This document shows positions 7,119-64,000 of a DNA stretch of 64,000 bases, in pieces. How positions within the stretch are numbered: position 1 is the first letter of the stretch; each line of letters starts with the position of its first letter. The DNA is taken from the NCBI GenBank assembly GCA_000432835.1, contig FR890371.1, positions 62,915 to 126,914 of the forward strand. Direction: 5' to 3'. Origin of the DNA: Clostridium sp. CAG:417 (GTDB lineage Bacteria > Bacillota_I > Bacilli_A > RF39 > UBA660). A model generated the notes under the pieces. That model did not search any database and was not told the DNA's origin. It saw only the letters and a list, made by a program, of their open reading frames with translations. A program made the translations under genes and the position numbers.

Positions 7119-7685
7119 ATGTATGATTATATGAATGGTTTAATAACAGATGTTAGACCAGATGGAATAGTTTTAGAGGTTAATAATATTGGATATTTTA
7201 TAAATGTATCCAATCCATATACTTTTGAAATTAATAAAATGAGTAGAGTATACTTATATCAACAAGTAAAAGAAGATGAGCTTAATTTATTTGGCTTTAA
7301 AAAGAAAGAAGAAAAAGAACTTTTTCTTAAATTAATTAATGTTAAGGGACTTGGATGTAAGATGGCTTTACCAATTTTAGCTACGGGATCTATAAATGGA
7401 ATAATGGAAGCAATAGAAAGAGAAAATATTGCTTATTTGAAAAAGTTTCCAAAGATTGGTGATAAATTAGCAAGACAGATGATACTTGATTTGAAGGGTA
7501 AAATTGGGAGTGTACATACTTTATTTGATGATAATAGTATTAATTATACTAGTAATGAATTACACGATGTTTTGATTGGATTAGGATATAAAGATAAAGA
7601 GATAAAAAATGTAGTATCTAAGGTTGATAAGAGTTTAACTATTGAGAATCAGGTAAAAGAGGCTTTAAAACTGTTATTAAAATAG
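7119..7685 (+). CDS. ruvA: Holliday junction branch-migration protein RuvA
   Basis: RuvA N-terminal OB domain, HhH motifs (LINVKGLG.K.A..IL) and a C-terminal domain. Immediately upstream of ruvB. Confidence 0.9.
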   Translation: MYDYMNGLITDVRPDGIVLEVNNIGYFINVSNPYTFEINKMSRVYLYQQVKEDELNLFGFKKKEEKELFLKLINVKGLGCKMALPILATGSINGIMEAIERENIAYLKKFPKIGDKLARQMILDLKGKIGSVHTLFDDNSINYTSNELHDVLIGLGYKDKEIKNVVSKVDKSLTIENQVKEALKLLLK

Positions 7686-12410: not shown

Positions 12411-12496
12411 AAATTTTTTTTCATTTTTAGTTCTCAGCTAATTGACTTTTGTCGTTATTTAGCGTATAATGAATGCCAGTTTAGAGGAGCGTAAAA

Positions 12497-13168
12497 ATGG
12501 AGCAAATTGATTTAGCTGAGTTTTTTAGATATTATTTATCTAAAATAATAATTGTTGTGATCGGGATAGGGTTAATGGTTGTAGTAGGAAATGTTTATAG
12601 CTTAATAGCTAGAAGACCGCTATATGAAAGTAATACAACTATTGTTTTAGCAAGTGAGTCAAAGGATAGTGCGACTTATACACAGAATGATTTACAATTA
12701 AATCAAAAACTTGTTTCTACATATAGTCAAATAATTAAAAGTAGAAAAGTAATGCAAAAAGTAATAGATACTGAGAGATTAAATTATACAGTAAGTCAAC
12801 TTTCAGAAAATGTTACTGTTACTAGTGTTCAAGATACTGAACTTATAAAAATATCTGTTAATGATAGAAATAGCATTACTGCTATGAAAATAGCAAATGA
12901 TATTGTACCTGTCTTTTCAGAAGAAGTTAAACGTATTTATAAGATAGATAATGTAAGTGTTGTAGATGAGGCAGTTGAAGCTAGTAAACCATATAATATA
13001 AACTATGTAAAAGAAAATCTAATATATATATTAGTAGGTTTTGTATTAGCAAGTGCTGTTATATTTATTATTTATTATTTTGATACGACAATTAAATCTA
13101 GTGAAATAGTAGAGGATAAATTAGGTTTAACAGTAATAGGAATAGTTCCTAAGGAAGAAAAGGAGTAG
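12497..13168 (+). CDS. Capsular/exopolysaccharide chain-length determinant (Wzz/CpsC/YwqC family, tyrosine kinase modulator)
   Basis: Two TM helices flanking a periplasmic domain, plus a C-terminal IGIVP motif. First gene of the cps module. Confidence 0.8.
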   Translation: MEQIDLAEFFRYYLSKIIIVVIGIGLMVVVGNVYSLIARRPLYESNTTIVLASESKDSATYTQNDLQLNQKLVSTYSQIIKSRKVMQKVIDTERLNYTVSQLSENVTVTSVQDTELIKISVNDRNSITAMKIANDIVPVFSEEVKRIYKIDNVSVVDEAVEASKPYNINYVKENLIYILVGFVLASAVIFIIYYFDTTIKSSEIVEDKLGLTVIGIVPKEEKE

Positions 13169-13172
13169 AGGT

Positions 13173-13895
13173 ATGAAGTCAACAGATTTAATTATTAATG
13201 TAAATCCTAAATCAATATTTAGTGAATCAATAAAAACAATTCGTACAAATTTAGCTTTTTCAGCAATTGGGAATGAAATGAAAGTATTACTAGCAACATC
13301 ACCAGCAGCTGGGGATGGAAAAAGTTTTATTTCGGCTAACTTGGCAGTAGCATATGCTCAAGAGGGCAAGAAAGTACTAATGATAGATTGTGATTTACGT
13401 AGAGGTAGACAACATGAAATATTTGAAGTAATGAATTTAACTAGTGGGGGGTATTCTAACTTAATATTAAATTATAAAGAAGATGTGAATTTAGGTAAAT
13501 ATATAATGAAAACATCAAATGCAAATGTTGATTTATTACCTACTGGTCCAACTCCACCTAATCCAATAGAGTTATTAGCATCAGAAAATAATCAAAAGTT
13601 ATTAAATGAGTTAAGAAAACTGTATGATATAATTATATTAGATTGTCCACCAGTTATAGGATTAAGTGATACTATGATTATGACAAAATTTAGTGATGCT
13701 AATATAATAGTTGTTTCAAATAAAAAAACTAAGATAGAAAGTTTAGATAGGGCAAAAAAAATATTTGCTCAAGCAAATGCTAAAATTACAGGGGTTGTTA
13801 TTAATAAAGCTTCAGTAAAGGGGAGCAGTTATTATAGTTATTACTCAGATGAATATTATAGAGATACAGATAGTAAAAAGAAGAGAAAAAGATAA
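13173..13895 (+). CDS. BY-kinase (CpsD/YwqD family tyrosine-protein kinase)
   Basis: Walker A (SPAAGDGKSFISANLA), Walker A' (LMIDCDLRR), Walker B (IILDCPPV) and a C-terminal tyrosine cluster (SSYYSYYSDEYYRD). Confidence 0.88.
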   Translation: MKSTDLIINVNPKSIFSESIKTIRTNLAFSAIGNEMKVLLATSPAAGDGKSFISANLAVAYAQEGKKVLMIDCDLRRGRQHEIFEVMNLTSGGYSNLILNYKEDVNLGKYIMKTSNANVDLLPTGPTPPNPIELLASENNQKLLNELRKLYDIIILDCPPVIGLSDTMIMTKFSDANIIVVSNKKTKIESLDRAKKIFAQANAKITGVVINKASVKGSSYYSYYSDEYYRDTDSKKKRKR

Positions 13896-49525: not shown

Positions 49526-50612
49526 AGAAATAAAAACAATGGATGAGAGAAAAAATAAGTTAATCAATTTAGGTAAGAAGCAGGGATATATTACTTATGA
49601 ACAACTTGCTGATGAGTTAAAAGGATTAGATATTGATAGTGATGTTTTAGATGACCTTTATAATTCCTTGGTTGAAGTGGGTATTGAAATAGTAGCAGAA
49701 GATGGTAGCAGTGATGGTGATGATGGTAGTGATATTACTCAAGATATATCAGTTGAAGAGTTAACTTTATCAAAAGATGTTAAAATCAATGACCCTGTTA
49801 GAATGTATTTAAAAGAAATTGGTCGTATTAACTTACTTACATCAGATGAGGAGTTTGAATATGCTAGAAGGGCTATTGATGGAGATGAAGAAGCAAAGAA
49901 AATGCTTGCTGAATCAAATTTAAGATTAGTTGTTTCTATTGCTAAACGTTATGTAGGACGTGGTATGTTATTTCTTGATCTTATTCAAGAGGGAAATATT
50001 GGACTTATGAAGGCAGTAGATAAGTTTGATCCAACTAAAGGATATAAGTTTTCAACTTACGCTACTTGGTGGATAAGACAAGCTATAACTCGTGCTATTG
50101 CAGATCAAGCAAGAACTATCAGAGTTCCTGTTCATATGGTTGAAACAATCAATAAATTATCTCGTGTTCAAAGACAATTAACACAAGAGTTAAATCGTGA
50201 ACCTACAGATGAAGAAATCGCTAAAAAATTAGATATTCCAGTAGAAAAAGTAAGAGAAGTATATAAAATAAGTCAAGATCCTGTATCATTAGAAACACCA
50301 ATTGGTGAGGAAGAAGATTCACATCTTGGAGATTTCTTGCCAGATGAGAGAACAATGGGACCAGAAGAATTTACAACGCAAGAAATGTTAAAAGAAGAGT
50401 TAGATGGTGTCTTACTTACCTTGACTGATCGTGAAGAAAAAGTTCTTCGCCTTCGTTTTGGACTTGATGACGGTCAGTGTAGAACACTAGAAGAAGTAGG
50501 CCAAATCTTTGGAGTTACTAGAGAACGTATTCGTCAAATTGAAGCTAAGGCTTTAAGAAAATTAAGACATCCATCACGTTCAAGAAAATTAAAGGATTTC
50601 ATGACTGACTAA
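49518..50612 (+). CDS. rpoD: RNA polymerase sigma factor RpoD/SigA
   Basis: Regions 1.2-4 ([50 protein letters not shown]). Overlaps dnaG by 8 nt. Confidence 0.95.
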
Positions 50613-51400: not shown

Positions 51401-54034
51401 ATGAAATACGTTTATTTATTTAGTGAAGGTAATAAAAATATGAGGGAAATTCTAGGTGGTAAGGGTGCAAACCTTGCCGAAATGACTTCTCTAGGATTGC
51501 CAGTGCCACAAGGTTTTACGGTATCAACTGATGCTTGCCTTAGCTACTATAATAATGGAGAAAAGATAATACCAGAAATTGAGACAGAAATTTTTTCTAA
51601 ATTAGAAGAATTAGAAAAAATTACAGGTAAAAAGTTTGGAGATCTTTCTAATCCACTTTTAGTATCTGTTAGAAGCGGAGCAAGAGTTTCAATGCCTGGA
51701 ATGATGGACACTGTTTTGAATTTAGGAATGAATGATGCTATATGTGATAATTTAGAAAAAACTTTGGATAATCCAAGATTTGCTTTAGATAGTTATCGCA
51801 GATTAATTCAAATGTATAGTGATGTTGTTATGGGCTTTCCTAAGAGTAGTTTTGAAGGAGTTTTTGATAAATTTAAGGAAGATAAGGGCATAACCCTTGA
51901 TACTGAACTTTCAAATGATGATTTAAAAGAAATTATTAGACTTTATAAGAATGAATATTTAAAATTAGCAGGAGATAATTTTCCTAGTGATCCAAGGGTT
52001 CAATTGTTAGAGGCAGTTAAGGCTGTTTTTAGAAGTTGGAATACAGAAAGGGCAATTACTTATCGTAGATTAAATGATATTCCTTCTGATTGGGGAACAG
52101 CAGTTAATGTTCAACAAATGGTTTATGGAAATAGAGACAAAAATTCTGGTACTGGTGTTTGTTTTACAAGGAATCCGGCAACAGGGGACAAAAAGTTGTT
52201 TGGCGAATATCTAATGAATGCTCAAGGAGAAGATGTAGTTGCTGGTATTAGAACACCACAGGATATAAGTACATTAAAAGATGTAATGCCAGAGTGTTAT
52301 GAACAATTTCAAAATATTTGTAATGTGCTTGAAAATCACTATCATGATATGCAAGATATGGAATTTACTATTGAAGATGGTAAACTTTATATGTTACAAA
52401 CTAGAAATGGTAAAAGAACTGCAAAAGCAGCAATTAAGATTGCAGTTGATTTAGTTCATGAAGGACAAATTAGTATAAATGAAGCTTTGATGATGGTTGA
52501 TGCTAAAGACCTTGATCAGTTGTTACATCCTGTTTTTAATGAAGATGATTTAAAAAATAAAGAGGTTATTGCGACTGGTCTTGCGGCATCTCCTGGAGCA
52601 GCTACTGGTAAATTGTATTTTAGTGCGGAAGATGTGTTAAATGCTCATAAGGCAGGGGAAAAAGATATTATTTTAGCGCGTGAAGAAACTTCTCCTGAAG
52701 ATATAGAAGGTATGAATGTAGCACATGGTATTTTAACTGTTAGAGGTGGTATGACATCTCATGCAGCTGTTGTTGCTCGTGGTATGGGAACTACTTGTGT
52801 AAGTGGATGTAGTAGTTTAATTGTTGATAGTAGTAATAAAACTTTACAAACGAGTGATGGTAGAGTTTATCATGAAGGAGACTATTTAAGTCTTGATGGT
52901 ACTAGTGGTAGGGTTTATAGCGGAAAAGTAGAGTTACTTGATGCTAAAATTAGTGGTGAATTTGAAGAGTTTATGAACTGGGCTGATAGCGTTAGAAAGC
53001 TTGAAGTAAGAGCTAATGCAGATAATCCTAGAGATGCGAGAGTAGCTCATAATTTTGGAGCTCAAGGTATAGGACTTTGTCGTACTGAGCATATGTTCTT
53101 TAGTGAAGAGAGAATCTTTAACTTTAGACGTATGATAATTGCGACGACTGAAGAGCAAAGAAAAGAAGCTCTTAGTAAAATTTTACCTTATCAAAGAGAG
53201 GACTTTGAAGGGTTATTTTCTGAGATGAATAATTTACCTGTTATCATTCGTTTCCTTGATCCACCACTTCATGAATTTTTACCACATACGGATAGTGAAA
53301 TGGAAGAATTAGCTAATAGTATGGGAGTAGCGTTTGATGTAATTAAAAATAAAGTTGAGAGTTTAAAGGAATTTAATCCAATGATGGGACACAGAGGATG
53401 TAGACTTGATGTTACTTATCCTGAGATTGCTAGAATGCAAACAAGAGCTGTTATTGAGGCCGCTATTAATGTTACTTTACGAGGATTCAAAGTTATTCCT
53501 GAAATTATGATTCCGCTTATTGGAGATATGAATGAGCTTAAATATGTCAAAAAATTAATTACTGATGAAGCTTCTAAGGTATTTGAAGAAAACAGGATGA
53601 GGATTGATTATAAAGTAGGAACAATGATAGAAATTCCTAGAGCAACACTTATTGCTGATGAGATTGCCAGTGAAGCTGAGTTCTTTAGTTTTGGTACTAA
53701 TGACTTAACTCAACTTACTTATGGTTTCTCTAGAGATGATGCTTCTAAATTCTTGAAGGATTATTATGATAAAAAGATATTCCTACATGATCCTTTCCAA
53801 TCTATAGATGAAGAGGGAGTTGGAAAGTTGGTTGATATTTCTGTTAGAAAATCAAGGACAGTTCGTAGAGACATTGAACTTGGTATTTGTGGAGAACATG
53901 GTGGAGATCCTAAATCTATCGATTTCTGTCATAGGGTAGGACTTAATTATGTTTCTTGTTCTCCTTATAGAGTTCCAGTTGCACGTTTAGCTGCTGCGCA
54001 AGCTGCGATTAGAAATAGTATTGATGTAATATAG
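51401..54034 (+). CDS. ppdK: Pyruvate, phosphate dikinase
   Basis: ATP-grasp N-domain (GGKGANLAEM), central phospho-His domain (GGMTSHAAVVARG) and PEP-utilising C-domain (RTEHMF, GTNDLTQ). The last 12 codons lie in a direct repeat; see the repeat features. Confidence 0.95.
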   Translation: MKYVYLFSEGNKNMREILGGKGANLAEMTSLGLPVPQGFTVSTDACLSYYNNGEKIIPEIETEIFSKLEELEKITGKKFGDLSNPLLVSVRSGARVSMPGMMDTVLNLGMNDAICDNLEKTLDNPRFALDSYRRLIQMYSDVVMGFPKSSFEGVFDKFKEDKGITLDTELSNDDLKEIIRLYKNEYLKLAGDNFPSDPRVQLLEAVKAVFRSWNTERAITYRRLNDIPSDWGTAVNVQQMVYGNRDKNSGTGVCFTRNPATGDKKLFGEYLMNAQGEDVVAGIRTPQDISTLKDVMPECYEQFQNICNVLENHYHDMQDMEFTIEDGKLYMLQTRNGKRTAKAAIKIAVDLVHEGQISINEALMMVDAKDLDQLLHPVFNEDDLKNKEVIATGLAASPGAATGKLYFSAEDVLNAHKAGEKDIILAREETSPEDIEGMNVAHGILTVRGGMTSHAAVVARGMGTTCVSGCSSLIVDSSNKTLQTSDGRVYHEGDYLSLDGTSGRVYSGKVELLDAKISGEFEEFMNWADSVRKLEVRANADNPRDARVAHNFGAQGIGLCRTEHMFFSEERIFNFRRMIIATTEEQRKEALSKILPYQREDFEGLFSEMNNLPVIIRFLDPPLHEFLPHTDSEMEELANSMGVAFDVIKNKVESLKEFNPMMGHRGCRLDVTYPEIARMQTRAVIEAAINVTLRGFKVIPEIMIPLIGDMNELKYVKKLITDEASKVFEENRMRIDYKVGTMIEIPRATLIADEIASEAEFFSFGTNDLTQLTYGFSRDDASKFLKDYYDKKIFLHDPFQSIDEEGVGKLVDISVRKSRTVRRDIELGICGEHGGDPKSIDFCHRVGLNYVSCSPYRVPVARLAAAQAAIRNSIDVI

Positions 54035-54046
54035 AGTAAAAGTAGA
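53999..54046 (+). repeat. Direct repeat copy 1 (48 bp, 47/48 identical to 63326..63373), spanning the last 12 codons and stop of ppdK
   Basis: caaGctgcgattagaaatagtattgatgtaatatagagtaaaagtaga occurs twice. Candidate attL-like junction. Confidence 0.85.
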
Positions 54047-54353
54047 AAAAATAACAAAAATGTTTTTAGGTGGCATAATCATTATGAATGACGATATTAT
54101 AAGGTATAGAATGATATACCTGAATGTAAAAATATAGTCATTAAAAATCACTTATTCCTGATGTTTATATATAATTTTAAGACTGAGATGACTTTTATGT
54201 CGCAAAGCTCAGTCTTTTTATGTGAAAAATATATATGTGCGATAAGTTGTTGGAAAATTAAAAAATGGAATTAATATATACAAAATGTAAGTTAATGAAT
54301 TTATCATAATAATCAAGAATTGATTTGTAAGACGTTTTAGATTTTTAATATAG

Positions 54354-54489
54354 GATGATGTATCAGATAAACTTGGTTTGTTTGGTTATTGTAAAAGAAG
54401 AATAATAGCAAGATATGAAAAAGAAGATAGAATCCCAAAAGATGAAAGATTAATATAAATAGCAAATATTTTAAATGTAAGTTTTAATT
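54354..54489 (+). pseudogene. Fragment of an XRE-family HTH regulator, missing helix 1 and the start codon and carrying an internal stop
   Basis: In-frame translation ...ISDKLGLFGYCKRRIIARYEKEDRIPKDERLI*IANILNVSFN matches the C-terminal half of Cro/C1-type HTH domains (IskwE.G...P....L..iA.il.VS.d). Confidence 0.4.
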
Positions 54490-54909
54490 AAATTAAAAAA
54501 TATGATTATAACAATCTAATAGGCTTAATTTATACTTTAATGTGGTTAAAAGAATTAATTCTCAATTATTATATTAAAGATTTTGATGATGATGAAGCAA
54601 TTATATGTATGGTAGATTCAAATAAGATATCTCCATTTTAAAAAGAATTGAGTCAGTAATTTCTTGTCAAATACTTGGAAGAGATAAAAGATATATTAAA
54701 AAATATATAATTGGAACAATTAAATTATACAATAAAAATAATAGACAAAGTAAACTTTTTACAAAAAATGTGGTATAACATTGTTGATAAAATTTTCGGG
54801 TGAATGATACAATGAAGAAGGAAAATATTCTAAATTTATTTATAGGTAATATTATAAATATTATTATTACTGTCATACCTCCTATTGCAATATTTAGTTT
54901 TTATAATGA

Positions 54910-55038
54910 ATTGGTCGTATTAACTTACTTACATTAGATGAGGAGTTTGAATACTCTAGAAGAACTATCAATAGAGATGAAGAAGCAAAGGGAATGCTTG
55001 CTGAATCAAATTTAAGATTAGTTGTTTCTATTGCTAAA
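54910..55038 (+). pseudogene. 129-bp partial duplicate of rpoD (nt 49818..49946, sigma region 1.2/2.1), about 92% identical, with no start codon
   Basis: 119/129 identical positions by manual alignment. The encoded peptide [43 protein letters not shown] matches the host [43 protein letters not shown]. The two sequences diverge immediately after. Confidence 0.8.
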
Positions 55039-55464
55039 CATAATACGAGAATAGATTATATTGGACATATTGCTGATACTCTTGGAGTATCTTTAGAACA
55101 ATTATTTGCAGAAATATTAAGAAGTTTCGTTTAGAAAAATATAATAAGTTTAATAAGAAAAACTTAAATACATCTATTAATCCATATTCTACTGAGAATA
55201 TTTCTGCATTTTTAGATTATAATCACAATTTTTATAGGAAATTTGAAAGTGATAATGAGATGATACTTTTAGAAAAACTAGTTAAATTATCTATTATTTT
55301 AGATAAAAAATTGAATGATTTTATTAGATAACTAATTGTTAAAAAAGCTTTGACTTTCCAGGAAAAAAATGGTAAGATATGCCTCAAAAAGAGGAGTATC
55401 ATTAATAAATTTAAAATTACAAAAATATTCTTTTTTACATTTTAAATGAAAAGGAGGAAATAAT

Positions 55465-56109
55465 GTGTTTGAAACGGAGGTTAGATTTTATTTTAATAAA
55501 AATGAATCTACAAAAATTATATCTTATTTAAAAAATATAGATTTGCTTTCTTTTGATGGTAGATTTTATGAGGTAACTCAACAATTTGATCATCCAGAAA
55601 TTTCTAAGTCTTTTTATTCATTGCAAGTTGATGGCAGATTTAGAGTTAGATTGTCAAAAGGTGAATTGTTTAGTAAGTTAAAAGTATCATGGAAACAGCG
55701 TTTAAAAAAAGATAGAATTGATAATAAAATTCATAGGGAAAGGGAAGTTGAAATTAATTTAAATCCAAATGAGTATGATAATTTAATGTATATATTGAAT
55801 GAAGTTATTGATATGAAACTTGTAGAGAGTTATGAAAGATATAGGAGTGCTTTTTCTAATAAAGAAGTAGAAATAGTTGTGGATGAGTATCCATTTGCTA
55901 CAGCTATTGAGATTGAAAGCAAAACTGATGACTCTATATCATTAAATTTGTGGATAGACAGATTGGGTTTAAAATTAGAGGATGCTTATAGTTTATCTTG
56001 GGATGATAAATATAATGAATTATGTAAAGAACAAGGGAAAACAGCAACTAAGTTTGTTACATTTGAATCTGATATGCCAGAGTTAAAAAATTGTATTTTT
56101 GGAGAATAA
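55465..56109 (+). CDS. CYTH-like triphosphate tunnel metalloenzyme (class IV adenylyl cyclase/triphosphatase fold)
   Basis: N-terminal ExExR (FETEVRF), an R-rich strand (GRFRVRLSKGE), REREVEINL, and a C-terminal ATAIEIESK acidic strand, matching the CYTH motif pattern. GGAGG RBS. Confidence 0.5.
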   Translation: MFETEVRFYFNKNESTKIISYLKNIDLLSFDGRFYEVTQQFDHPEISKSFYSLQVDGRFRVRLSKGELFSKLKVSWKQRLKKDRIDNKIHREREVEINLNPNEYDNLMYILNEVIDMKLVESYERYRSAFSNKEVEIVVDEYPFATAIEIESKTDDSISLNLWIDRLGLKLEDAYSLSWDDKYNELCKEQGKTATKFVTFESDMPELKNCIFGE

Positions 56110-56110
56110 A

Positions 56111-56980
56111 ATGGAAAGTATAAAGAAAATTGAAAATGGTAATCTTAATGATGTATATAAATTAGTTCTAAATAATAAAAAGTATATTTTAAGAGTGACA
56201 AAATTTAATAATGATTGTGAGATAAATACATTGCTAATTTTAAAAAAATATAATTTAAATGTGCCAAATCTGTTAGCTCATTTTAGTGTTTATAATAAAA
56301 ATGTAATGTTATTAGATTATATTGAAGGGAGTAATCCTCTGAAAATTGATACTAAATTTATTACTGAACTTTTAAAACAGTTAAAAAAACTTCATAATAT
56401 TCCATATGAACATTTGGAAGAAAAATCAATAAATACAATAGAAAATTTTGAAAGATTGAGTGAATATTATGTTGTAAGCAAAGAATCAAATTTTTTAAAG
56501 CAAAAAATTCATTTAATTAATTCTATTTTGGAAGATGTTAGAGATATACCTTTTGATAAAATACCAAAATGCATAGTACATTCTGACATAAAAAAAGAGA
56601 ATGTGCTAGTAAATAATAATATTGTTTACATAATTGATTTTGGAAATAGTTATATAGGAAATAGGCTAATAGATTTAGTTAGAATAATTATGTGGTTTTT
56701 TTTGAAAGAAAATGATTTTAATATTGACGAAATAGAAAACAGTTTTAAAGTATATTTTGAAAATAATCATCTTATTGATTTAGAATATAATAATCTTAGT
56801 AAAATAATAAAATTTTGTGTTATTTATAATTTAATTAAAGATGTTTATTTATTTGAAAAAGGATTCTTATCTGAAAATTATGTTGTTAAAAATGATACAA
56901 AATGGTTAAATGCATTGGAAAATGAACAATTATTAGAGAAAGTAAAGGAGGCTTTAAATAATGCTAGTAGATATTCATAA
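56111..56980 (+). CDS. APH/choline-kinase-like small-molecule phosphotransferase (protein-kinase-like fold)
   Basis: Gly-rich loop region (GNLNDVYKL), catalytic VHSDIKKENVL (HxDxxxxN) and IIDFGNS (DFG-like). Confidence 0.6.
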   Translation: MESIKKIENGNLNDVYKLVLNNKKYILRVTKFNNDCEINTLLILKKYNLNVPNLLAHFSVYNKNVMLLDYIEGSNPLKIDTKFITELLKQLKKLHNIPYEHLEEKSINTIENFERLSEYYVVSKESNFLKQKIHLINSILEDVRDIPFDKIPKCIVHSDIKKENVLVNNNIVYIIDFGNSYIGNRLIDLVRIIMWFFLKENDFNIDEIENSFKVYFENNHLIDLEYNNLSKIIKFCVIYNLIKDVYLFEKGFLSENYVVKNDTKWLNALENEQLLEKVKEALNNASRYS

Positions 56981-57752
56981 AAATAAAGATTTAAGGAATA
57001 TAGAGGTTAATAATATAGGAATTTGTGATTATAAATTGCCAATAATATTTAAAAATAAGAGCAATATTTTTCCTACTATTGCAACTATTACTTCTACAGT
57101 AGTTTTAGATAGGAACCTAAAAGGCGCTCACTTAAGTAGAATTTCTGAGGTTATTAATGATTCATTAATAAACAAAAACATTTCATTGGGTGATATTAAT
57201 GATATAACTAAAGAAGTTGCAGAAAGATCAGAAACTAAAGGTGCTAATTTAATATTATCATTCGATTTAATTAACAAAAGATTAACACCTGTATCTAAAA
57301 AGGATTCTTATTTATCTTCTAAAATTACAATAATTAGTGATATTTTTGATAAAAGTGTTAGCAATAAATTGATTGTAGAGACTGTTGGTACAATGCTTTG
57401 TCCATGTTCAAAAGCAATTTCTAAGTATGGTGCACATAATCAAATATGTAATTTAAAAGTTTCGTTAACAGGTAATATTGAAAGTATAGATGTTGAAAAA
57501 ATTATTGATATTATGGAACAACAATTTAGTTCACCTGTTTATAGTACTGTTAAAAGAGAAGATGAAAAATACATTACTGAAAAGGCTTATGAAAATCCTA
57601 AGTTTTCAGAAGACTTGATTAGAGATACTATAATAGCTATTCATAATTATTATTCTGCTTGCGATATAAGGGTAGAATTAGTCAACAATGAATCAATTCA
57701 TCAACATAATGTTTATGCAATGGGAGAACAAAATGCTGATTTTAACTCATAA
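56961..57752 (+). CDS. folE2: GTP cyclohydrolase FolE2/MptA family (GCYH-IB)
   Basis: KGAHLSRISE (the ..H.SRF motif), CPCSKAIS...GAHNQ and C-terminal NESIHQHNVYA (ESIHNHSAYA-like), diagnostic of FolE2/MptA. AAGGAGG RBS. Confidence 0.7.
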   Translation: MLVDIHKNKDLRNIEVNNIGICDYKLPIIFKNKSNIFPTIATITSTVVLDRNLKGAHLSRISEVINDSLINKNISLGDINDITKEVAERSETKGANLILSFDLINKRLTPVSKKDSYLSSKITIISDIFDKSVSNKLIVETVGTMLCPCSKAISKYGAHNQICNLKVSLTGNIESIDVEKIIDIMEQQFSSPVYSTVKREDEKYITEKAYENPKFSEDLIRDTIIAIHNYYSACDIRVELVNNESIHQHNVYAMGEQNADFNS

Positions 57753-58581
57753 AGAATTGTATGATAGATATTTAATCAATGTTGGTGATGACTCTAAAAA
57801 GGAAATTAAATCTATATTAACGGCTATGGAAAAACATGGCTATTCTAGTTTGATAAAACAAAAAATTAACATGAATGAAGAAACATTTTATTATTTATAT
57901 TCTTTGTTAATAAAATTAAAAGAAATATTTGATACAAGATATAACAATAGAAATGATTTAGAAATCTTTTTTGATTATGTATTACAAGGTATCGATAGTA
58001 TTCCAATTAACTTTTATGCTATTTTTTGTCCTGGTTATAATGATGATGGATACAAAGATAGGCTAGGTAAAACTACTACTACTAAAATACAAAAACTTTT
58101 TCAAATGAAACAATTATTAGATAAGGAGAATGTTTTACATAATATTCATTGTTTATATGCAGATATTTTTTTAGAGAATTGTGATGAACTTAAAAATCCA
58201 AATTGGGAAAAGGAATTAGAGGTTAATAAAAATCTATTTAAGGAATATGCCATTAAATATTTAGAATGTGCAGATATTGGTTTTTTATCAAGTTATTTTT
58301 CTGATAGTAAATATCAGAGAGGCTTTGTTGATTCTAGTATTATTAATGGTAATAATTATGAGTCATTTAGAAAATATAATAATAATTTTTATATGAAAAT
58401 GGGCTGGGATGATGCTAAAACAAAAGAACGTAATGATAAGTTATATACAATTTATAATATAATTGCTGAATATATTATCAATACAAAATCAAATGGTGTT
58501 TATTTACCGATGGAGAATATGTATGCACGAACTAAAGTGTTTACTAAGAAAAAAGTGAGTTCAATGTATTTTAAATTGTAG
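57733..58581 (+). CDS. Hypothetical protein (283 aa), unique to this operon
   Basis: Start at the ATG after GGGAGAA, overlapping folE2 by 20 nt (translationally coupled). No recognisable motif. Confidence 0.4.
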   Translation: MLILTHKELYDRYLINVGDDSKKEIKSILTAMEKHGYSSLIKQKINMNEETFYYLYSLLIKLKEIFDTRYNNRNDLEIFFDYVLQGIDSIPINFYAIFCPGYNDDGYKDRLGKTTTTKIQKLFQMKQLLDKENVLHNIHCLYADIFLENCDELKNPNWEKELEVNKNLFKEYAIKYLECADIGFLSSYFSDSKYQRGFVDSSIINGNNYESFRKYNNNFYMKMGWDDAKTKERNDKLYTIYNIIAEYIINTKSNGVYLPMENMYARTKVFTKKKVSSMYFKL

Positions 58582-58591
58582 AGGAGTAAAT

Positions 58592-60604
58592 ATGAATTAT
58601 AAAGAAAAAGGTAATCTGTTTTGTAAAGAAATAAATCAATTATTGGCAAATAAAAATGAATACTATGCTTTGGTTACTGGAGGTGGATTTGCTTATGATT
58701 CTGTAAAGTATTCGGATACTATACAGGGTGATTATGATTTTATGATAGTATATAAGGATGTTGAGCAATTAAATTCTTTAATAGAAGAATTAGAAAAAAT
58801 TCCATTTGATTTTGAAAAGAAATATTTAGTTTCTGATTTACATTTATTAAAAAGTAAAGTAATAGATATCATAAGATTAAGTGGTAAATATCGTGGTACC
58901 AAGAGTACTATTAACTTAGTAAACATAGAGTTAATTAAAAGAATAGCAAATTTGGAAACAAGAATGTCTTTAAAGAAAATTGCTCATAATAGAAATACTG
59001 GTCTGTTTTTTGCATATGGTTCTGATAATAGCAGAATAATTGTAAACTTTTTATCACCATCATTTGTTAGTAATGATGGTGAAGATCACTATATTCATTT
59101 AGATTTTTCTAATATTATTGTAGATAATAATATTTATTTTGGTATATTAGCAGATGCTATTTTAAAGGGTTTTAATAGTAATTATGATAATGTAGGCTTT
59201 AAGAAAGTACGTCAAAAGATGATAAAAAATATTAATAACTTTTTTAAAAATAATAAAATCGATAATAGTAATTATCTAAACTTGTATGCTAACAATATAT
59301 ATTTTCCAGAAAGTTTAAAAAGACAATTACTTGAAGAATTCAATAAATATGGTAAAAATGTTTTTGCAGAAAAAAATACTATATCTAATACAAAATATCC
59401 AATTATTTTTGCTGTTGATAATCCAATTAATAGAAAAATGAATCCATTTAATTTTATAAATAATAAAAGTTACAGATGTTCTTTTGATGATTATATTAAT
59501 GAAATGCAAAAAAATGAATATGATAGACAATATTTGCTAGACGCATTAGCTAAATTGTTTGGATATGTTGCTTTTTCGAATAGTAAATTAGAGGGTGATA
59601 ATTATATAGAAAATATCATATCTAAATTCAGTGTATATGGTAATAATGATTTGTATTTTGAAGGAATTGAAAAATATTCTGTTAATACTATTTTTGGTTC
59701 ATTTATTAATGATTTAAAAGTAAATAGATTTAAATATAACCCTATTTTATATAAAAATTATTTGCTAATGTTGTTAAGTTTTTTGTCATTTTATAATAAT
59801 AAGAATATTTTTGATATGTCCTTAAAATATGAAGTTAATGTTCAAAAATTGGTTAAACCTGAATTAGATAATACTAAAATGAATAGTAAAGTAATATTGA
59901 AGTTGTTTAATTTTGATGATATAGGTATGTATCATAATTATACATCAAAGGTTATGCCTGGATATACACAAACTGAATGTGATTTTTTAGAAAAAGTATT
60001 TATAGATAAAAAAGAGCCTGTTTTAGATATTATGTGTGGATATGGAAGAATAGCTAATGAATTAGTTAAAAGAAATTATAAAAATGTGTATGGCGTTGAT
60101 TTTTCTGGTTATTCTTTTTTGAATGTAGATAAGAATTTTATTTTTTCTAAAGATGATTTCTTTCATTATCGACCAGGTATATTATTTAAATATTTATATA
60201 GCTTATATAATTGTTATGAAAATAAGGAATATTTGAGAAAAGTAATCAATAAAATGGCAGAATTGTCTGCTGATAATGCTCTTGCTATTTTAGATGTTTT
60301 TAACAAAGAATGGCGAGATAAAATAGATCCTGAATTTTATAAATTGCTTTTTGATAGTTCTCCTGTAAAATTAGAAATTAGTAGGCATTATGATGATACA
60401 ACAGGCGTTGAAACAACTAAATATTTAAAAACAATGTCTGATAATGAACAAGAAGAATATAGTTTTTCTCAAAAGTTTTTTACACAGACTGAGATAGAGG
60501 AGTCTATAGATTATAAAAAATGGAATATAGATTTTTTTACATCTGCTGAGGTTGGATCAAGAAATAATAATCAGAAAAGAATTTTGGTTTTAAGGAGGCG
60601 ATAA
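58592..60604 (+). CDS. Two-domain protein: N-terminal nucleotidyltransferase (pol-beta-like) fold plus C-terminal class I SAM-dependent methyltransferase
   Basis: N-terminal LVTGGGFAYDSVKYSDTIQGDYDFMIV fits hG[GS]x(9-14)DhDh. C-terminal VLDIMCGYGRIANEL...VYGVDFS is SAM-MTase motif I plus the post-I acidic residue. Confidence 0.5.
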   Translation: MNYKEKGNLFCKEINQLLANKNEYYALVTGGGFAYDSVKYSDTIQGDYDFMIVYKDVEQLNSLIEELEKIPFDFEKKYLVSDLHLLKSKVIDIIRLSGKYRGTKSTINLVNIELIKRIANLETRMSLKKIAHNRNTGLFFAYGSDNSRIIVNFLSPSFVSNDGEDHYIHLDFSNIIVDNNIYFGILADAILKGFNSNYDNVGFKKVRQKMIKNINNFFKNNKIDNSNYLNLYANNIYFPESLKRQLLEEFNKYGKNVFAEKNTISNTKYPIIFAVDNPINRKMNPFNFINNKSYRCSFDDYINEMQKNEYDRQYLLDALAKLFGYVAFSNSKLEGDNYIENIISKFSVYGNNDLYFEGIEKYSVNTIFGSFINDLKVNRFKYNPILYKNYLLMLLSFLSFYNNKNIFDMSLKYEVNVQKLVKPELDNTKMNSKVILKLFNFDDIGMYHNYTSKVMPGYTQTECDFLEKVFIDKKEPVLDIMCGYGRIANELVKRNYKNVYGVDFSGYSFLNVDKNFIFSKDDFFHYRPGILFKYLYSLYNCYENKEYLRKVINKMAELSADNALAILDVFNKEWRDKIDPEFYKLLFDSSPVKLEISRHYDDTTGVETTKYLKTMSDNEQEEYSFSQKFFTQTEIEESIDYKKWNIDFFTSAEVGSRNNNQKRILVLRRR

Positions 60605-60606
60605 AT

Positions 60607-61143
60607 ATGTCAATTATAGCAATTGAAGGAAGTAACTGTAGTGGAAAGTCAACATTGATAGATTATTTAGTTAAATATTATAATTTTAAATCTTCAAAAT
60701 CAGTACCTGAGTGGTTTAGACCATATATACCTTTTGCAAGAGAATTACAACCTCAAATACAACGAAAAATATATGAGATAGGACATATTGCAGCGTACTA
60801 TGATGCACTAAAAGAAAAAAAATGTACTATTTTTGACCGTTGTTACTTTTCAACATATATTCGATTATCATATCAAGAAAGTAAAACTGTAAATGAGTGT
60901 GTAGATCAAATTGCTTCTTTTCACTATAAGCCTGATTTAATAATTGTTCTAACTGTTCCTAAAGAAATTATGGAGCAGAGGTTGGTAGAAAGGAATAAAC
61001 AGTTTAATCAGGATTTTTTTGAATATGAAAATTCTGTTTATTTACAATTATCACTCAAATATGATAACATTATATTAGTTGATAATAGTAAAAATATAAA
61101 ATTTTGTACGAATGAAATATTGAGAAAAATAAAAGGGAGATAA
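60607..61143 (+). CDS. Deoxynucleoside-kinase/thymidylate-kinase-like P-loop nucleoside (nucleotide) kinase
   Basis: IAIEGSNCSGKST P-loop in the dNK context (I.IEG..G.GKST), FDRCYFS (DR/ERS motif), and a lid/base-binding region. Confidence 0.6.
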   Translation: MSIIAIEGSNCSGKSTLIDYLVKYYNFKSSKSVPEWFRPYIPFARELQPQIQRKIYEIGHIAAYYDALKEKKCTIFDRCYFSTYIRLSYQESKTVNECVDQIASFHYKPDLIIVLTVPKEIMEQRLVERNKQFNQDFFEYENSVYLQLSLKYDNIILVDNSKNIKFCTNEILRKIKGR

Positions 61144-61146
61144 GTT

Positions 61147-62085
61147 ATGAATGATGTAAGAGAGCAATTGAAATATGTAGTGGAAAATAGTGTTTATGTA
61201 AAAATTAATTATACTCAATTAGATAATTTTATAAATAGTTTAGGAAAGCCAAATTATCGACATTGGTATAATTTTACTTCTTTAAATTTAAACGAAAAGG
61301 AAAAAATTATTTTAGCCTTTATAATAGAAAGTTTAAATTTTTGTTTTTGGCAAAAGCCAAAATTTAAAATTGAATATAAAGGTAATATTATAAAAGGGTC
61401 TGAGGCTTTATTTTATTCAATTATAAGAGAAGTAGAATCTAATAAAGATTTTTTAGATATAGAATTTTTAAATAAATTAACAAAAGATGATTTTGAAAAA
61501 ATATTTTATTCGCCTGATAGTATAATACCTTTATTCGATTTGAGATATGATCTTTTTAAAGATACTGTTAAAACAATGTATAATAAAGGACAGAGTTTTT
61601 TTGATGAATTGTTTAATAAGAAATCAGATGTTGATTTATTAAAGTATATTGTGTCAGAATTTAAGTATTTTGATGATAGTAGTATATATAAAGGTAAAAG
61701 AATAAAGTTTAACAAACGTGCTACTTTACTTGTTAATGACTTATATTATATGTCATCTACAATACATAATAATTTAAAAAATGTTGATAATTTAACAGGT
61801 TGTGCTGATTATGGTATACCAAGGACTTTAAGAACGTATGGGATTTTAGAATATAATGAGGAATTATCTAACATAATTGATAGTGAGATAGAGTTAAAGC
61901 ATGATAGTAATATGGAAATTGAAATTAGAGCTAATATGCTTTATGTATTAGAATTAATTAGAGAAAAATTAGAAAGTAAAGGTATTAAAATTAATTCTGT
62001 AGAATTAGATAATATTATTTGGCAGATGGGAACGAAGAAGAAAAATGTAAATCCATATCATCATACAATTACAATATTTTATTAG
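61147..62085 (+). CDS. qng1: Qng1/DUF2419-family protein (queuosine 5'-phosphate N-glycosylase/hydrolase homologue)
   Basis: Block-by-block similarity to human QNG1 (C9orf64): SLNFCFW vs TLNFSFW, KGKRIKFNKRATLLVNDL vs EGKRVSFYKRAQILVADT, GCADYGIPRTL vs FADYRLPQVL, EIEIRANMLYVLELIRE vs EVEIRGCSLWCVELIRD, C-terminal HHTITIFY vs HRIRCIYY. Confidence 0.65.
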   Translation: MNDVREQLKYVVENSVYVKINYTQLDNFINSLGKPNYRHWYNFTSLNLNEKEKIILAFIIESLNFCFWQKPKFKIEYKGNIIKGSEALFYSIIREVESNKDFLDIEFLNKLTKDDFEKIFYSPDSIIPLFDLRYDLFKDTVKTMYNKGQSFFDELFNKKSDVDLLKYIVSEFKYFDDSSIYKGKRIKFNKRATLLVNDLYYMSSTIHNNLKNVDNLTGCADYGIPRTLRTYGILEYNEELSNIIDSEIELKHDSNMEIEIRANMLYVLELIREKLESKGIKINSVELDNIIWQMGTKKKNVNPYHHTITIFY

Positions 62086-62423
62086 ATTCTATTATAAACT
62101 AAATTTTAGACAAGTTAGTAACCCACTATGATATTGACGGAGCCAATAATGAATTTGGGTAAAGGGAGTTTCCCTTTGAGGACCCACTTAGAGTAACAAA
62201 TTACAAAGTGTTATAACACAATAATGTTGTATAAAAATAACCATGTTGCTAAAAAGTGAAATGTGCCTCATACAGTAGACATCAATAAAAACCTATTTAA
62301 TAAAAATGTGGTAGAATACACTTCTGAAGGTGGTGTATTCTTATGATTTAAAAAGGAAAAAAGCATATTAAACATATTGATGAATTTAAAAAAATTAGAA
62401 ATGAACTTAAATATATTAACAAA

Positions 62424-62987
62424 ATGTGTGAAAAGTATAATGATAATATAAATTCAATAAATCACTATACTAAACCTGCAAATCTAGGAGATGGGTATGA
62501 TATTATAAGACCTATTCTATGGGATTATATAATTCAAATGGCGGTTGCAAATTCAGAAACACACAATATAATCCAGTTCTTAAGAGGTAAGGCTGAACTA
62601 TATGAGTCACAATTTTCTCAAAATGCATATTTTCACAGTATAGAAAGTTTTATTAACACTTTAAAAAATAGTAATAATTGTATTGTCGTTAATTTAGTTT
62701 CTAATTTAGAAACAAGAAAAAATAGAAATAGAATAAGATTTGAAAATGGTGGACATTATGTTTCTGATGATACTATGGACAAAATATATTCAAAAGACAT
62801 ATTTGAATATACAAAAACTGGCGAAAATTTTGGATATTTATTAGTTGCTGGTCAAACTATTCCAGTATATACTATTGTTAATGATAAAACACTTAACGAG
62901 ATTGCATTAAATAATTTTTTAGAATATAATGTCAATAGGGTAATAAAATATTACAATGATTTTAAGGAAGGAAAAACATGGAATTAA
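62424..62987 (+). CDS. Hypothetical protein, possibly the C-terminal part of a P-loop kinase-like fold. No ATG-initiated upstream extension.
   Basis: KNRNRIRF..GGHYVSDD is reminiscent of the lid region of adenylate/zeta-type kinases. Preceded by a TGgTAGAAT extended -10 and an AGAATACAC...GTGTATTCT hairpin in the 5' leader. Confidence 0.3.
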   Translation: MCEKYNDNINSINHYTKPANLGDGYDIIRPILWDYIIQMAVANSETHNIIQFLRGKAELYESQFSQNAYFHSIESFINTLKNSNNCIVVNLVSNLETRKNRNRIRFENGGHYVSDDTMDKIYSKDIFEYTKTGENFGYLLVAGQTIPVYTIVNDKTLNEIALNNFLEYNVNRVIKYYNDFKEGKTWN

Positions 62988-63277
62988 AAAAGATTCAAAA
63001 AGATGTTTGGCAGAATAAGTTAAACAAAGGATTTAATACAACAGATGTAAATAAAGAGTTTTGTTTATTATATGGAGAAGTTTCTGAAGCGTATGATGCT
63101 TGGAAAAAGAAAAAAGATGATTTGAATGAAGAATTAGCAGACATTGCTATTTACTTAATGGGTCTATCTGAAATGTTGGGTTTTGATTTAGCAGATGAAA
63201 TAGAGAAGAAAGTTTCTAAAAATGAAAAACGAGTATATAAAAATATAGATGGGGTTAATGTAAGAATAAGTGATTAA
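62978..63277 (+). CDS. MazG-like nucleoside triphosphate pyrophosphohydrolase (small all-alpha NTP-PPase)
   Basis: LYGEVSEAYDAWKK....EELADIAIYLMGLSEMLGFDLADEIEKK..KNEKRVY is the EExxE...ELADxxxY MazG/HisE-type signature. Confidence 0.6.
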   Translation: MELKKIQKDVWQNKLNKGFNTTDVNKEFCLLYGEVSEAYDAWKKKKDDLNEELADIAIYLMGLSEMLGFDLADEIEKKVSKNEKRVYKNIDGVNVRISD

Positions 63278-63325
63278 TATTTAGATTTAAATTTGTATTA
63301 AGATATTCCGAACTAAATCTTGGTA

Positions 63326-63373
63326 CAAACTGCGATTAGAAATAGTATTGATGTAATATAGAGTAAAAGTAGA
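63326..63373 (+). repeat. Direct repeat copy 2 (displaced native ppdK 3' end), followed by a terminator-like hairpin TTGTTTCTT-gaaaaa-AAGAAACAA
   Basis: 47/48 identity with 53999..54046. Still encodes ...TAIRNSIDVI* in frame. Candidate attR-like junction. Confidence 0.85.
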
Positions 63374-63455
63374 TAGCAAAAATATGCAAATTTGTTTCTT
63401 GAAAAAAGAAACAAAAAATAGTATAATTTTATGTGTTAAACGAGTAGCTTTTAAG

Positions 63456-63498
63456 AAAGAGGCGTAAATCCAGTTTATGGATTTTGCCTCTTTTTTCT
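63456..63498 (+). terminator. Rho-independent terminator (or attenuator) upstream of the MATE gene
   Basis: AAAGAGGC...GCCTCTTT stem, with an internal sub-hairpin, followed by a T-run. Confidence 0.5.
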
Positions 63499-63519
63499 CG
63501 TTAAATAAGGAGGAAAATT

Positions 63520-64000
63520 ATGAAGGATGAAAGTCAAAATAAAATGGCAATAGAGCCAATTAATAAACTTATTTTAAAAATGGGTTTACCTATGATTGTA
63601 TCTATGGTTTTACAAGCATTATATAATGTAATCGATAGCATCTTTGTTGCTAATATGGGTTCTACTGGTGCTATTGCAAATCAAGCATTAACTTATGCTT
63701 TTCCAATTCAGATAATGATTATTGCGATTGGAGTTGGAACAGGTGTTGGTTTAAATGCTTTACTATCTAAGAGTTTAGGAGAAAATGATAAAAATAAAGT
63801 AAATAAGATAGCGGGGAATGGAATATTTTTAAGTATATGTATTTATATTTTCTTTTTGATATTTGGATTATTCTTCTCTAAGTGGTTTATTTCTTTATTT
63901 ACTAATGATAAAGAAATTATCAAGATGGGAACTACTTACTTAAAGATTTGTACTTGTTTGTCATTAGGTTCTATTGGATATACTGTTTATGAGAGATTTT
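63520..64000 (+). CDS. MATE-family efflux transporter, 3'-truncated at window end
   Basis: AAGGAGG RBS. MATE N-terminal helix pattern (MAIEPINKLILKMGLPMIVSMVLQALYNVIDSIFVAN.G). Confidence 0.7.
   Translation, partial: MKDESQNKMAIEPINKLILKMGLPMIVSMVLQALYNVIDSIFVANMGSTGAIANQALTYAFPIQIMIIAIGVGTGVGLNALLSKSLGENDKNKVNKIAGNGIFLSICIYIFFLIFGLFFSKWFISLFTNDKEIIKMGTTYLKICTCLSLGSIGYTVYERF

Follow-up and report, generated by a model that had tools for sequence, protein, structure and literature searches.

Background

In Streptococcus thermophilus, the defining cis-mobilisable elements (CIMEs) adjoin ICESt1/ICESt3 at the 3' end of fda. A CIME is an integrase-less remnant that has kept both attachment sites, attL and attR, and is a normal decay product of ICEs (integrative and conjugative elements) or IMEs (integrative and mobilisable elements), typically found at the 3' ends of housekeeping genes (PMC5704250). 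The 3' end of ppdK, the gene for pyruvate phosphate dikinase, is the insertion site of 19 PvCTn-like conjugative transposons of Bacteroidota, at the motif GYSGCNCARGCKGCHRTHGA (codons A-A-Q-A-A-I/V-D/E), with regeneration of the stop codon (PMC11005914). The present analysis concerns a 9.3-kb island at the 3' end of ppdK in Clostridium sp. CAG:417 (GTDB lineage Bacteria; Bacillota_I; Bacilli_A; RF39; UBA660). It lies in a stretch of 64,000 nt (NCBI GenBank assembly GCA_000432835.1, contig FR890371.1, positions 62,915 to 126,914 of the forward strand), called the window below, in whose numbering positions are given. The segment 54047-63325 is very probably the remnant of an integrative, probably conjugative, element that was inserted site-specifically at the ppdK 3' end and has decayed.

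As in CIMEs, the direct repeats of the island take in the 3' end of a protein-coding housekeeping gene, integrase and transfer genes are lacking while pseudogenes of the parent element and a cargo are kept, and empty sites occur in the same species. Unlike the streptococcal CIMEs, the target is ppdK and the cargo is a nucleotide-enzyme operon rather than restriction or defence genes; the mobilisation by accretion known for CIMEs was not observed in this species. The island shares with PvCTn its target gene and codons (the repeat begins CAA GCT GCG ATT, for Q-A-A-I), imperfect direct repeats, and the regenerated frame and stop of ppdK. It differs from PvCTn in being found in Bacillota, in its unrelated ICE backbone, and in a much longer segment of identity (41-48 nt) that reaches 3' beyond the stop; the 20-nt attB motif of PvCTn, GYSGCNCARGCKGCHRTHGA, has no match in the window at up to 3 mismatches. 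By these comparisons the island is an analogue of PvCTn as regards target and the equivalent of a CIME as regards state, its kind and its target both being already known.

Duplication of the ppdK 3' end

Coordinates of the target gene and of both attachment sites are as follows.

51401..54034, + strand: ppdK, pyruvate phosphate dikinase, 877 amino acids (aa), the target gene (list of open reading frames (ORFs); Pfam PPDK_N, PEP-utilizers and PEP-utilizers_C on the identical protein)
53999..54046, + strand: attL, proximal copy of the 48-nt repeat, composed of bacterial left arm, shared core and element arm
63326..63373, + strand: attR, distal copy of the 48-nt repeat, composed of element arm, core and bacterial right arm, and holding the detached QTAIRNSIDVI and stop

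A repeat search confirmed the 48-bp direct repeats around 9.3 kb that had been described in an earlier note on this DNA, based on the letters of the sequence and a list of its ORFs: the copies are identical at 47/48 positions (98%), lie 9327 nt apart, and form the longest repeat of the region. Their exact 41-nt core, CTGCGATT...AAAAGT, occurs twice in the window and in none of 100 dinucleotide-preserving shuffles. The ppdK ORF ends at 54034, and the proximal copy consequently holds 11 codons, the stop and 12 nt of 3' untranslated region (UTR), not the 12 codons and stop first counted; these last 11 codons and stop of ppdK sit within attL. The distal copy, previously read as coding for ...TAIRNSIDVI and stop, does translate as QTAIRNSIDVI and stop.

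Related elements at ppdK and the pseudogenes next to attL

The ppdK loci of 80 related species (L011-L090) were fetched, each reaching 10 kb from ppdK. The 1.4 kb next to attL was matched in three of the 80 loci (L014, L056 and L086), and therefore represents a mobile neighbour, not ancestral synteny. Its components are listed here.

54235..54575, + strand: pseudogene of an XRE-type helix-turn-helix (HTH) regulator, from the parent element's first gene (one frameshift, three in-frame stops and a decayed ribosome-binding site)
54570..54742, + strand: ParB_N-domain pseudogene in two fragments, from the parent element's second gene (the L014 homologue matches Pfam ParB_N)
54928..55134, + strand: chimeric fragment whose first 37 aa are sigma-70 region 2-like, with an HTH-like tail (tblastn; six-frame translation)
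55050..55073, + strand: left 24-nt imperfect repeat, deletion endpoint of the short allele (repeat search, BLAST breakpoints)
55207..55257, + strand: fragment like the C-terminal part of operon gene 4 (58364-58414; repeat at 73%, weak tblastn match, E 0.2, to the L117 orthologue)

The earlier note had called this segment non-coding debris. It is decayed but not anonymous, being a mosaic of HTH, ParB, rpoD-like and gene-4-like pseudogenes. The HTH pseudogene has 55-60% aa identity to intact ppdK-adjacent genes in L014, L056 and L086 (tblastx/tblastn; Pfam HTH_19/HTH_3 on the L014 homologue), and its closest intact proteins are 77-81% identical. The ParB fragments correspond to residues 75-92 and 245-275 of the L014 ParB-like protein, the intervening sequence being gone, and show 55-60% protein identity to intact genes placed directly after ppdK in the same three loci. 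The 37-aa sigma fragment (54928-55041) is 70% identical to the host rpoD (49836-49961, 4 kb upstream of ppdK) and 68% identical to a sequence like rpoD in L011, as if chromosomal DNA of a related donor had been captured.

The HTH and ParB pseudogenes, together with a terminator hairpin described below, are collinear with intact genes that follow ppdK in L014, L056, L086 and L187. The L014 locus (JAFQQQ010000002.1) codes, within 10 kb after ppdK, for HTH_19, ParB_N, rep-like HTH_36 and HTH_3 proteins, the toxin PemK, a protein with a CAP domain and, in tandem, three tyrosine recombinases. L187 (ERZ919301 scaffold_899) has, after ppdK, genes for HTH, ParB, an adhesin of 1371 aa with SpaA domain, a sortase, SSB and a type IV secretion system (T4SS) pilin, and this element is conjugative. 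A ParB-like gene lies 1.4-1.5 kb past the ppdK C-terminus in L145 and L150, for which the IMG/VR prediction is "viral". The island thus resembles a group of XRE-HTH/ParB_N elements of Bacillota (L187, L014, L056, L086, and probably L145 and L150) in its insertion point relative to ppdK and in a homologous, collinear left arm with hairpin and first two genes. Unlike the island, these relatives keep intact genes, for conjugation in L187, and for the rep-like HTH_36 protein, PemK and the three tyrosine recombinases in L014. No nucleotide operon was seen in the stretches read of these six loci.

In L086, the ppdK 3' region is present twice (12484-12574 and 13384-13474; 91 nt, 92%, 900 nt apart) around a single 231-aa ORF, with the HTH-ParB element downstream, and divergence between the two copies sets in exactly past the Q codon (CAA) of A-A-Q-A-A-I. 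Tandem arrangements of this kind arise when elements integrate one after another at the same att site, and repeated use of the site is thereby shown. L086 was the only one of the 80 related species in which a duplication of the ppdK 3' end was found within 10 kb downstream.

Two further observations were made on these loci. The three recombinases of L014, a goat-colon metagenome-assembled genome, are on the minus strand at L014:19854-22602, 7-10 kb past ppdK, and are like "recombinase in trio" elements; they may act for the ppdK-linked element or be an insertion of their own. Up to ...RLAAAQA the PpdK proteins of the 80 related species are conserved; the C-terminal 3-12 residues beyond differ greatly from species to species.

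Empty, long and short alleles

Conspecific loci were found by exact look-up of the 877-aa PpdK in public assemblies, and come from human-gut contigs. Three allele states were distinguished: empty, long (9.3 kb) and short (3.6 kb). The empty site that had been predicted for related genomes was present on seven conspecific contigs with identical PpdK (L002-L004, L006-L009), where ppdK is followed by a single repeat copy, an A/U hairpin and the MATE gene, and at three further loci from metagenomes (L103, L106, L107). The short island, with both repeat copies, was found in L001, L005 and L010. The exact 670-aa protein of the cargo is recorded in 136 sample blocks, and in all ten loci displayed it lies within the 9.3-kb ppdK island. 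Both repeat copies are exact in nine long-island loci, and two (L091 and L100) have one single-nucleotide polymorphism (SNP) each in attR, which shows drift. Since the empty, short and long alleles can all encode the same 877-aa protein, PpdK was left unaltered by integration.

The earlier note had envisaged that relatives might hold the same content with no repeat, or that the repeat might be a generic one scattered over unrelated loci. Neither was observed: every occupied site carries both repeat copies, and the core was found at ppdK loci only. A metagenome scan with the core returned 10 stretches, all at ppdK, with attB, attL and attR as the only junction types. The circular, attP-type junction expected upon excision (element arm, core, element arm) is GGTACAAACTGCGATT...AAAAGTAGAAAAAA; none was present among the 30 junctions classified, a negative of low power, since the metagenome scan gave only these 10 stretches. 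A core search of viral contigs gave 0 matches, as did a search for the exact 33-nt core in a set of one genome per species, from which the species itself seems absent (best PpdK 75% identical).

The short allele equals the long one minus 5718 bp, lost between the 24-nt imperfect repeats 55050-55073 and 60768-60791 (BLAST breakpoints in L001, L005 and L010). The deletion truncates the thymidylate kinase (TMPK)-like gene of the cargo, leaving the last 3.5 genes, and the short allele therefore derives from the long one.

The first base past the 41-nt core is T in 9 of the 10 unambiguous empty sites, and A in both copies of 15/15 occupied sites. Recombination between the repeat copies could yield A only; most empty sites are therefore naive and not deletion products. 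This base bears on the proposal that the long arrangement is ancestral and that the empty allele arose by RecA-mediated deletion between pre-existing 48-nt repeats. Such a deletion would leave exactly one copy, HTH-ParB genes do follow ppdK in several related species, and L106, the sole empty site with A, has the allele that a deletion predicts. The proposal is nevertheless highly improbable in view of the nine T sites, of the HTH-ParB neighbours, which are patchy (3/80) and accompanied by conjugation, toxin and recombinase genes, and of the lower diversity of the island relative to its flanks; the detached ppdK 3' end before MATE would in any case still need an integration. L106 has a right-flank allele otherwise confined to empty sites, and is most simply an A-type attB into which the element integrated; the identity between attB and attP would therefore be 44 nt, or 48 nt with one mismatch.

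Diversity was computed on MAFFT alignments of the window and ten long-island loci, BLAST-based counts for the segment next to attL (18-20 vs 4-5 by recheck) having been discarded as unreliable. It amounts to 5.8 SNPs per kb in ppdK and 9.8 in the 242 nt right of attR, against 1.4 in the attL-proximal segment and 0-1.6 in the cargo genes, a contrast biased by the choice of L091-L100 for their identical 670-aa protein, which lowers island diversity. Because island diversity is below flank diversity, the standing variation is suggested to predate the acquisition. Mosaic haplotypes among the flanking SNPs indicate a recombining species. Right-flank sites +7 and +247 are fixed in 15/15 carriers and polymorphic among empty sites. 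Sites -5 (counted left of the repeat's fourth base), +11 and +14 (counted right of the first post-core base) show all four combinations with island presence. These patterns were read as one integration followed by recombination; independent multiple integrations were not adopted, with +7 and +247 fixed among carriers. The empty, long and short alleles all segregate in this recombining human-gut population, in which the island is now most likely passed on vertically and through homologous recombination in the DNA on either side of it.

An alternative view of the same data is that the island is cis-mobilisable and that the integrase of a related ppdK-targeting conjugative element, acting in trans, still drives its excision, transfer and re-integration, with several independent entries into strains. 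Nearly all carriers have both att copies intact, diversity drops 4- to 30-fold from the flanks to the island with an abrupt change at the att sites, and the four combinations at -5, +11 and +14, the tandem accretion at ppdK in L086, and a repeat-flanked, integrase-less operon at another gene's 3' end in L113 (see below) would all fit; the A-allele empty site L106 could be an excision scar. L106, however, has the empty-type allele at +247, and the low island diversity is partly a selection artefact. Nor was attP encountered in the low-power set of 30 junctions or in viral contigs, and on the contigs seen of this species ppdK is accompanied by neither an intact element nor a tandem array. The fixation of +7 and +247 in the 15 carriers fits one integration then recombination. 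Mobilisation in trans is accordingly considered unlikely, and a single integration followed by decay is preferred.

Three other features of these contigs were recorded. In L109 (6179-6468, on a 1.7x-coverage contig), an A-type empty ppdK site is joined after the A/U hairpin to an rpmE-like gene and not to MATE; this junction is probably an assembly chimera and could be a rearrangement. In L091, L095 and L100, the downstream MATE gene is split or shortened (371 + 93 aa or 206 + 257 aa). L005 (15823-16124) has its MazG-like gene divided into pieces of 49 and 51 aa, and its island falls 35 bp short of the length in the other short-allele loci. Decay is ongoing around and within the island.

Nature of the island

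The direct repeats at both ends of the island contain the target sequence, and an integrase of its own is missing, as had been stated earlier: no ORF gave a Phage_integrase or serine-recombinase match in Pfam, and tblastn searches with the three L014 recombinases found no remnant. A tblastn search of the island with proteins from L014 and L187 (rep-like, PemK, sigma-like, recombinase, conjugation) recovered the HTH and ParB fragments alone. The state expected of a CIME was thus found, with attL and attR kept, integration and transfer genes absent, and ICE/IME-derived pseudogenes present. The island is a decayed integrative (conjugative) element, equivalent to a CIME, because the HTH and ParB genes found as debris are intact after ppdK in relatives, one of them conjugative and another with three tyrosine recombinases. 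The site-specific integration at the ppdK 3' end proposed in the earlier note is supported by the repeats, the conspecific empty sites, the restriction of the core to ppdK and the elements of relatives.

Other classes of element were considered and rejected. For a prophage, no structural, packaging or lysis genes were found, the PHROGs matches being to nucleotide enzymes only (thymidylate kinase, pyrophosphatase, FolE2-like). For a transposon or insertion sequence, there is no transposase domain, and the 25 longest of 285 inverted-repeat pairs never join the island ends. A 48-nt duplication far exceeds the target duplications made by transposition. For a known defence system, PADLOC returned weak partial matches only (kinase loop PD-T4-6; P-loop PDC-M51B, VakA) and no complete system.

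The lack of an integrase, and a direct repeat that equals the shared homology, would also fit a circular DNA carrying ~44 bp of the ppdK 3' end that entered by a single homologous (Campbell-type) crossover, with no dedicated recombinase. A homology of 44-48 bp is, however, about as short as efficient RecA recombination usually tolerates, or shorter. A circle that carries the exact terminal codons of a gene is moreover the signature of an element attP, and the same site is used by the elements of relatives and, in another phylum, by integrase-bearing transposons (PMC11005914). Very little credence can be given to a Campbell-type origin, and site-specific integration is retained.

On this preferred reading, the element would have been inserted site-specifically, most likely with a recombinase of the tyrosine type, into an attB made of the last ~10 ppdK codons, the stop and ~10 nt of 3' UTR. 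Recombination across the 41-48-bp identity segment would have duplicated it as attL and attR. A new, element-encoded terminator hairpin now comes after ppdK. Modules presumed to be those for recombinase, replication and transfer were lost, the XRE-HTH and ParB-like genes became pseudogenes, the 1.4-kb fragment mosaic built up beside attL, and the nine-gene nucleotide-enzyme operon stayed intact. In many strains, a later 5.7-kb deletion at the 24-nt imperfect repeats left the last 3.5 genes.

Several points weigh against this reconstruction. An integrase, an attP junction or a circular form was not seen, and the recombination mechanism is inferred from anatomy and relatives. The base past the core is A in both copies and T in most empty sites, whereas a crossover inside the core would leave T in attR; integration into an A-type (L106-like) attB, gene conversion or heteroduplex repair must be assumed. 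The right ends of the relatives' elements (attR, integrase position) lie beyond the fetched loci, which stop 10 kb from ppdK. The bias in the diversity contrast counts in the same direction, and the operon may have entered the element later rather than arriving with it.

Hairpins and the ppdK-MATE junction

The structures on either side of the island were assessed by folding, since a consensus terminator scan called no hairpin here owing to its loop-length and GC criteria.

54179..54222, + strand: terminator-like hairpin with U-run supplied by the element (-13.9 kcal/mol, z -2.9; aligns with the post-ppdK hairpin of L014, L056 and L086)
63391..63496, + strand: native features of the ppdK-MATE intergenic region, the same in empty sites (A/U hairpin, promoter-like motif, strong hairpin with U-tract)

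The proximal copy had been said to have no terminator. This was incorrect: 145 nt past the ppdK stop there is a hairpin (54179-54216) with UUUUU after it, and 4 of its 12 pairs show compensatory changes in four aligned sequences from the island and related elements. The DNA from the ppdK stop to the HTH start codon can be aligned with L014, L056 and L086. Folded, conserved and tailed by a U-run, this hairpin is therefore brought by the element and predicted to serve ppdK as a replacement terminator.

The hairpin reported beyond the distal copy is real (63391-63415, -11.3 kcal/mol, z -4.3), but its 10-bp A/U stem is followed by an A-run and not by the T-tract that had been described. A near-consensus promoter (TTGAAA-17-TATAAT, 63399-63427) overlaps it. 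Further downstream come a hairpin of high stability followed by a U-tract (63453-63496, -24.3 kcal/mol, z -5.4), right after it the ribosome-binding site of MATE, and the MATE start at 63520. The layout of promoter, hairpin 63453-63496 and ribosome-binding site is like the leader or attenuator of an efflux gene. An Rfam search of 53900-64000 gave no match at E <= 1.

The cargo operon

All nine ORFs of the cargo are intact.

55465..56109, + strand: gene 1, 214 aa, weakly CYTH-like (Pfam CYTH E 0.0036, below the family cutoff)
56099..56980, + strand: gene 2, APH-family small-molecule kinase (Pfam APH 1.6e-19)
56961..57752, + strand: gene 3, FolE2-type GTP cyclohydrolase IB (Pfam GCHY-1 5e-64; NCBIfam FolE2 189 bits, under the 215-bit cutoff)
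57733..58581, + strand: gene 4, 282 aa, no sequence family, predicted fold like a class-I aminoacyl-tRNA synthetase (aaRS) catalytic domain (AlphaFold2, pLDDT 90)
58592..60604, + strand: gene 5, 670 aa, N-terminal ~440 aa without assignment and C-terminal class-I S-adenosylmethionine-dependent methyltransferase
60607..61143, + strand: gene 6, thymidylate/deoxynucleoside-kinase-like P-loop kinase (Pfam Thymidylate_kin 1.4e-14; PHROG 761), holding the right deletion repeat 60768-60791
61147..62085, + strand: gene 7, homologue of Qng1/DUF2419, queuosine-salvage glycosylase (Pfam Q_salvage 1.4e-54; PDB 7uk3 3.5e-38)
62424..62987, + strand: gene 8, 187 aa, no family detected
62978..63277, + strand: gene 9, MazG-like nucleoside triphosphate pyrophosphohydrolase (Pfam MazG-like 2.6e-8; PHROG 3301)

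Qng1/DUF2419 is queuosine-5'-monophosphate glycosylase (PMC9881137). The cargo has clear sequence homology to it and to FolE2 (Q_salvage 1.4e-54, 7uk3 3.5e-38, GCHY-1 5e-64). Unlike the characterised Qng1 and FolE2, the cargo enzymes belong to a conserved operon with an APH kinase, a protein of aaRS-like fold, a methyltransferase fusion, a TMPK-like protein, and MazG or NUDIX. The model of gene 4 was matched by Foldseek to TyrRS, PvcA/IsnA and CDPS (E 1e-5, TM 0.46-0.57), and the C-terminal domain of gene 5 is of the small-molecule N-/C-methyltransferase type (CcbJ, TylM1, DesVI, CypM). PDB sequence searches with the 297-aa, 187-aa and 214-aa proteins gave nothing significant. A gap of 338 nt (62086-62423) separates the Qng1-like gene from the 187-aa ORF, which is called at 218 aa in L096 and L098; the start of gene 8, or a small upstream element, thus differs among strains.

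The core order APH, FolE2, aaRS-like, 670-aa protein, usually followed by TMPK-like, NUDIX or MazG, and Qng1-like, recurs in other gut Bacillota at 36-57% identity, the homologues lying at unrelated chromosomal sites with no integrases nearby. A homologue of gene 1 is found in L111 and not in L113 or L115. In L119, the most distant operon locus, another gene, of 276 aa, follows the 670-aa homologue and there is no Qng1-like gene. The L113 operon (APH to Qng1-like, 6.5 kb) lies between 41-nt exact direct repeats (50 nt at 96%; 7195-7244 and 13745-13794), the repeat beginning at the stop codon of a CotD-like gene, with a MazEF pair downstream; the interior of this cassette holds no integrase and no HTH-ParB remnant.

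Neither QueC, QueD and QueE nor folate genes were found in the operon loci examined, and no described pathway was found that matches the gene set. With low confidence, the operon may make or process a GTP-derived nucleotide or nucleoside metabolite. Because the operon is at the ppdK 3' end here and, repeat-flanked, at the 3' end of a CotD-like gene in L113, it might be speculated that it encodes an undescribed pathway of gut Bacillota in which a pterin- or 7-deazapurine-like nucleotide or nucleoside derived from GTP is made or processed, and that it travels as integrase-less, att-flanked cassettes moved in trans by the integrases of resident conjugative elements; this must be considered doubtful.

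Significance

For annotation purposes, the region is an ICE-derived island with att sites and pseudogenes. The only part of it that is left unexplained is the intact, patchily distributed nucleotide-enzyme operon, together with its delivery. Stages in the decay of a conjugative element can be followed within one species, from the empty site to the 9.3-kb and 3.6-kb remnants, with the cargo kept and the host gene intact. Repeated replacement of the gene end by integrating elements might contribute to the variable C-terminal tails of PpdK. The use of the ppdK 3' end as attB is extended from Bacteroidota to gut Bacillota, and the conserved A-A-Q-A-A-I codons look like a recurrent landing pad across phyla.

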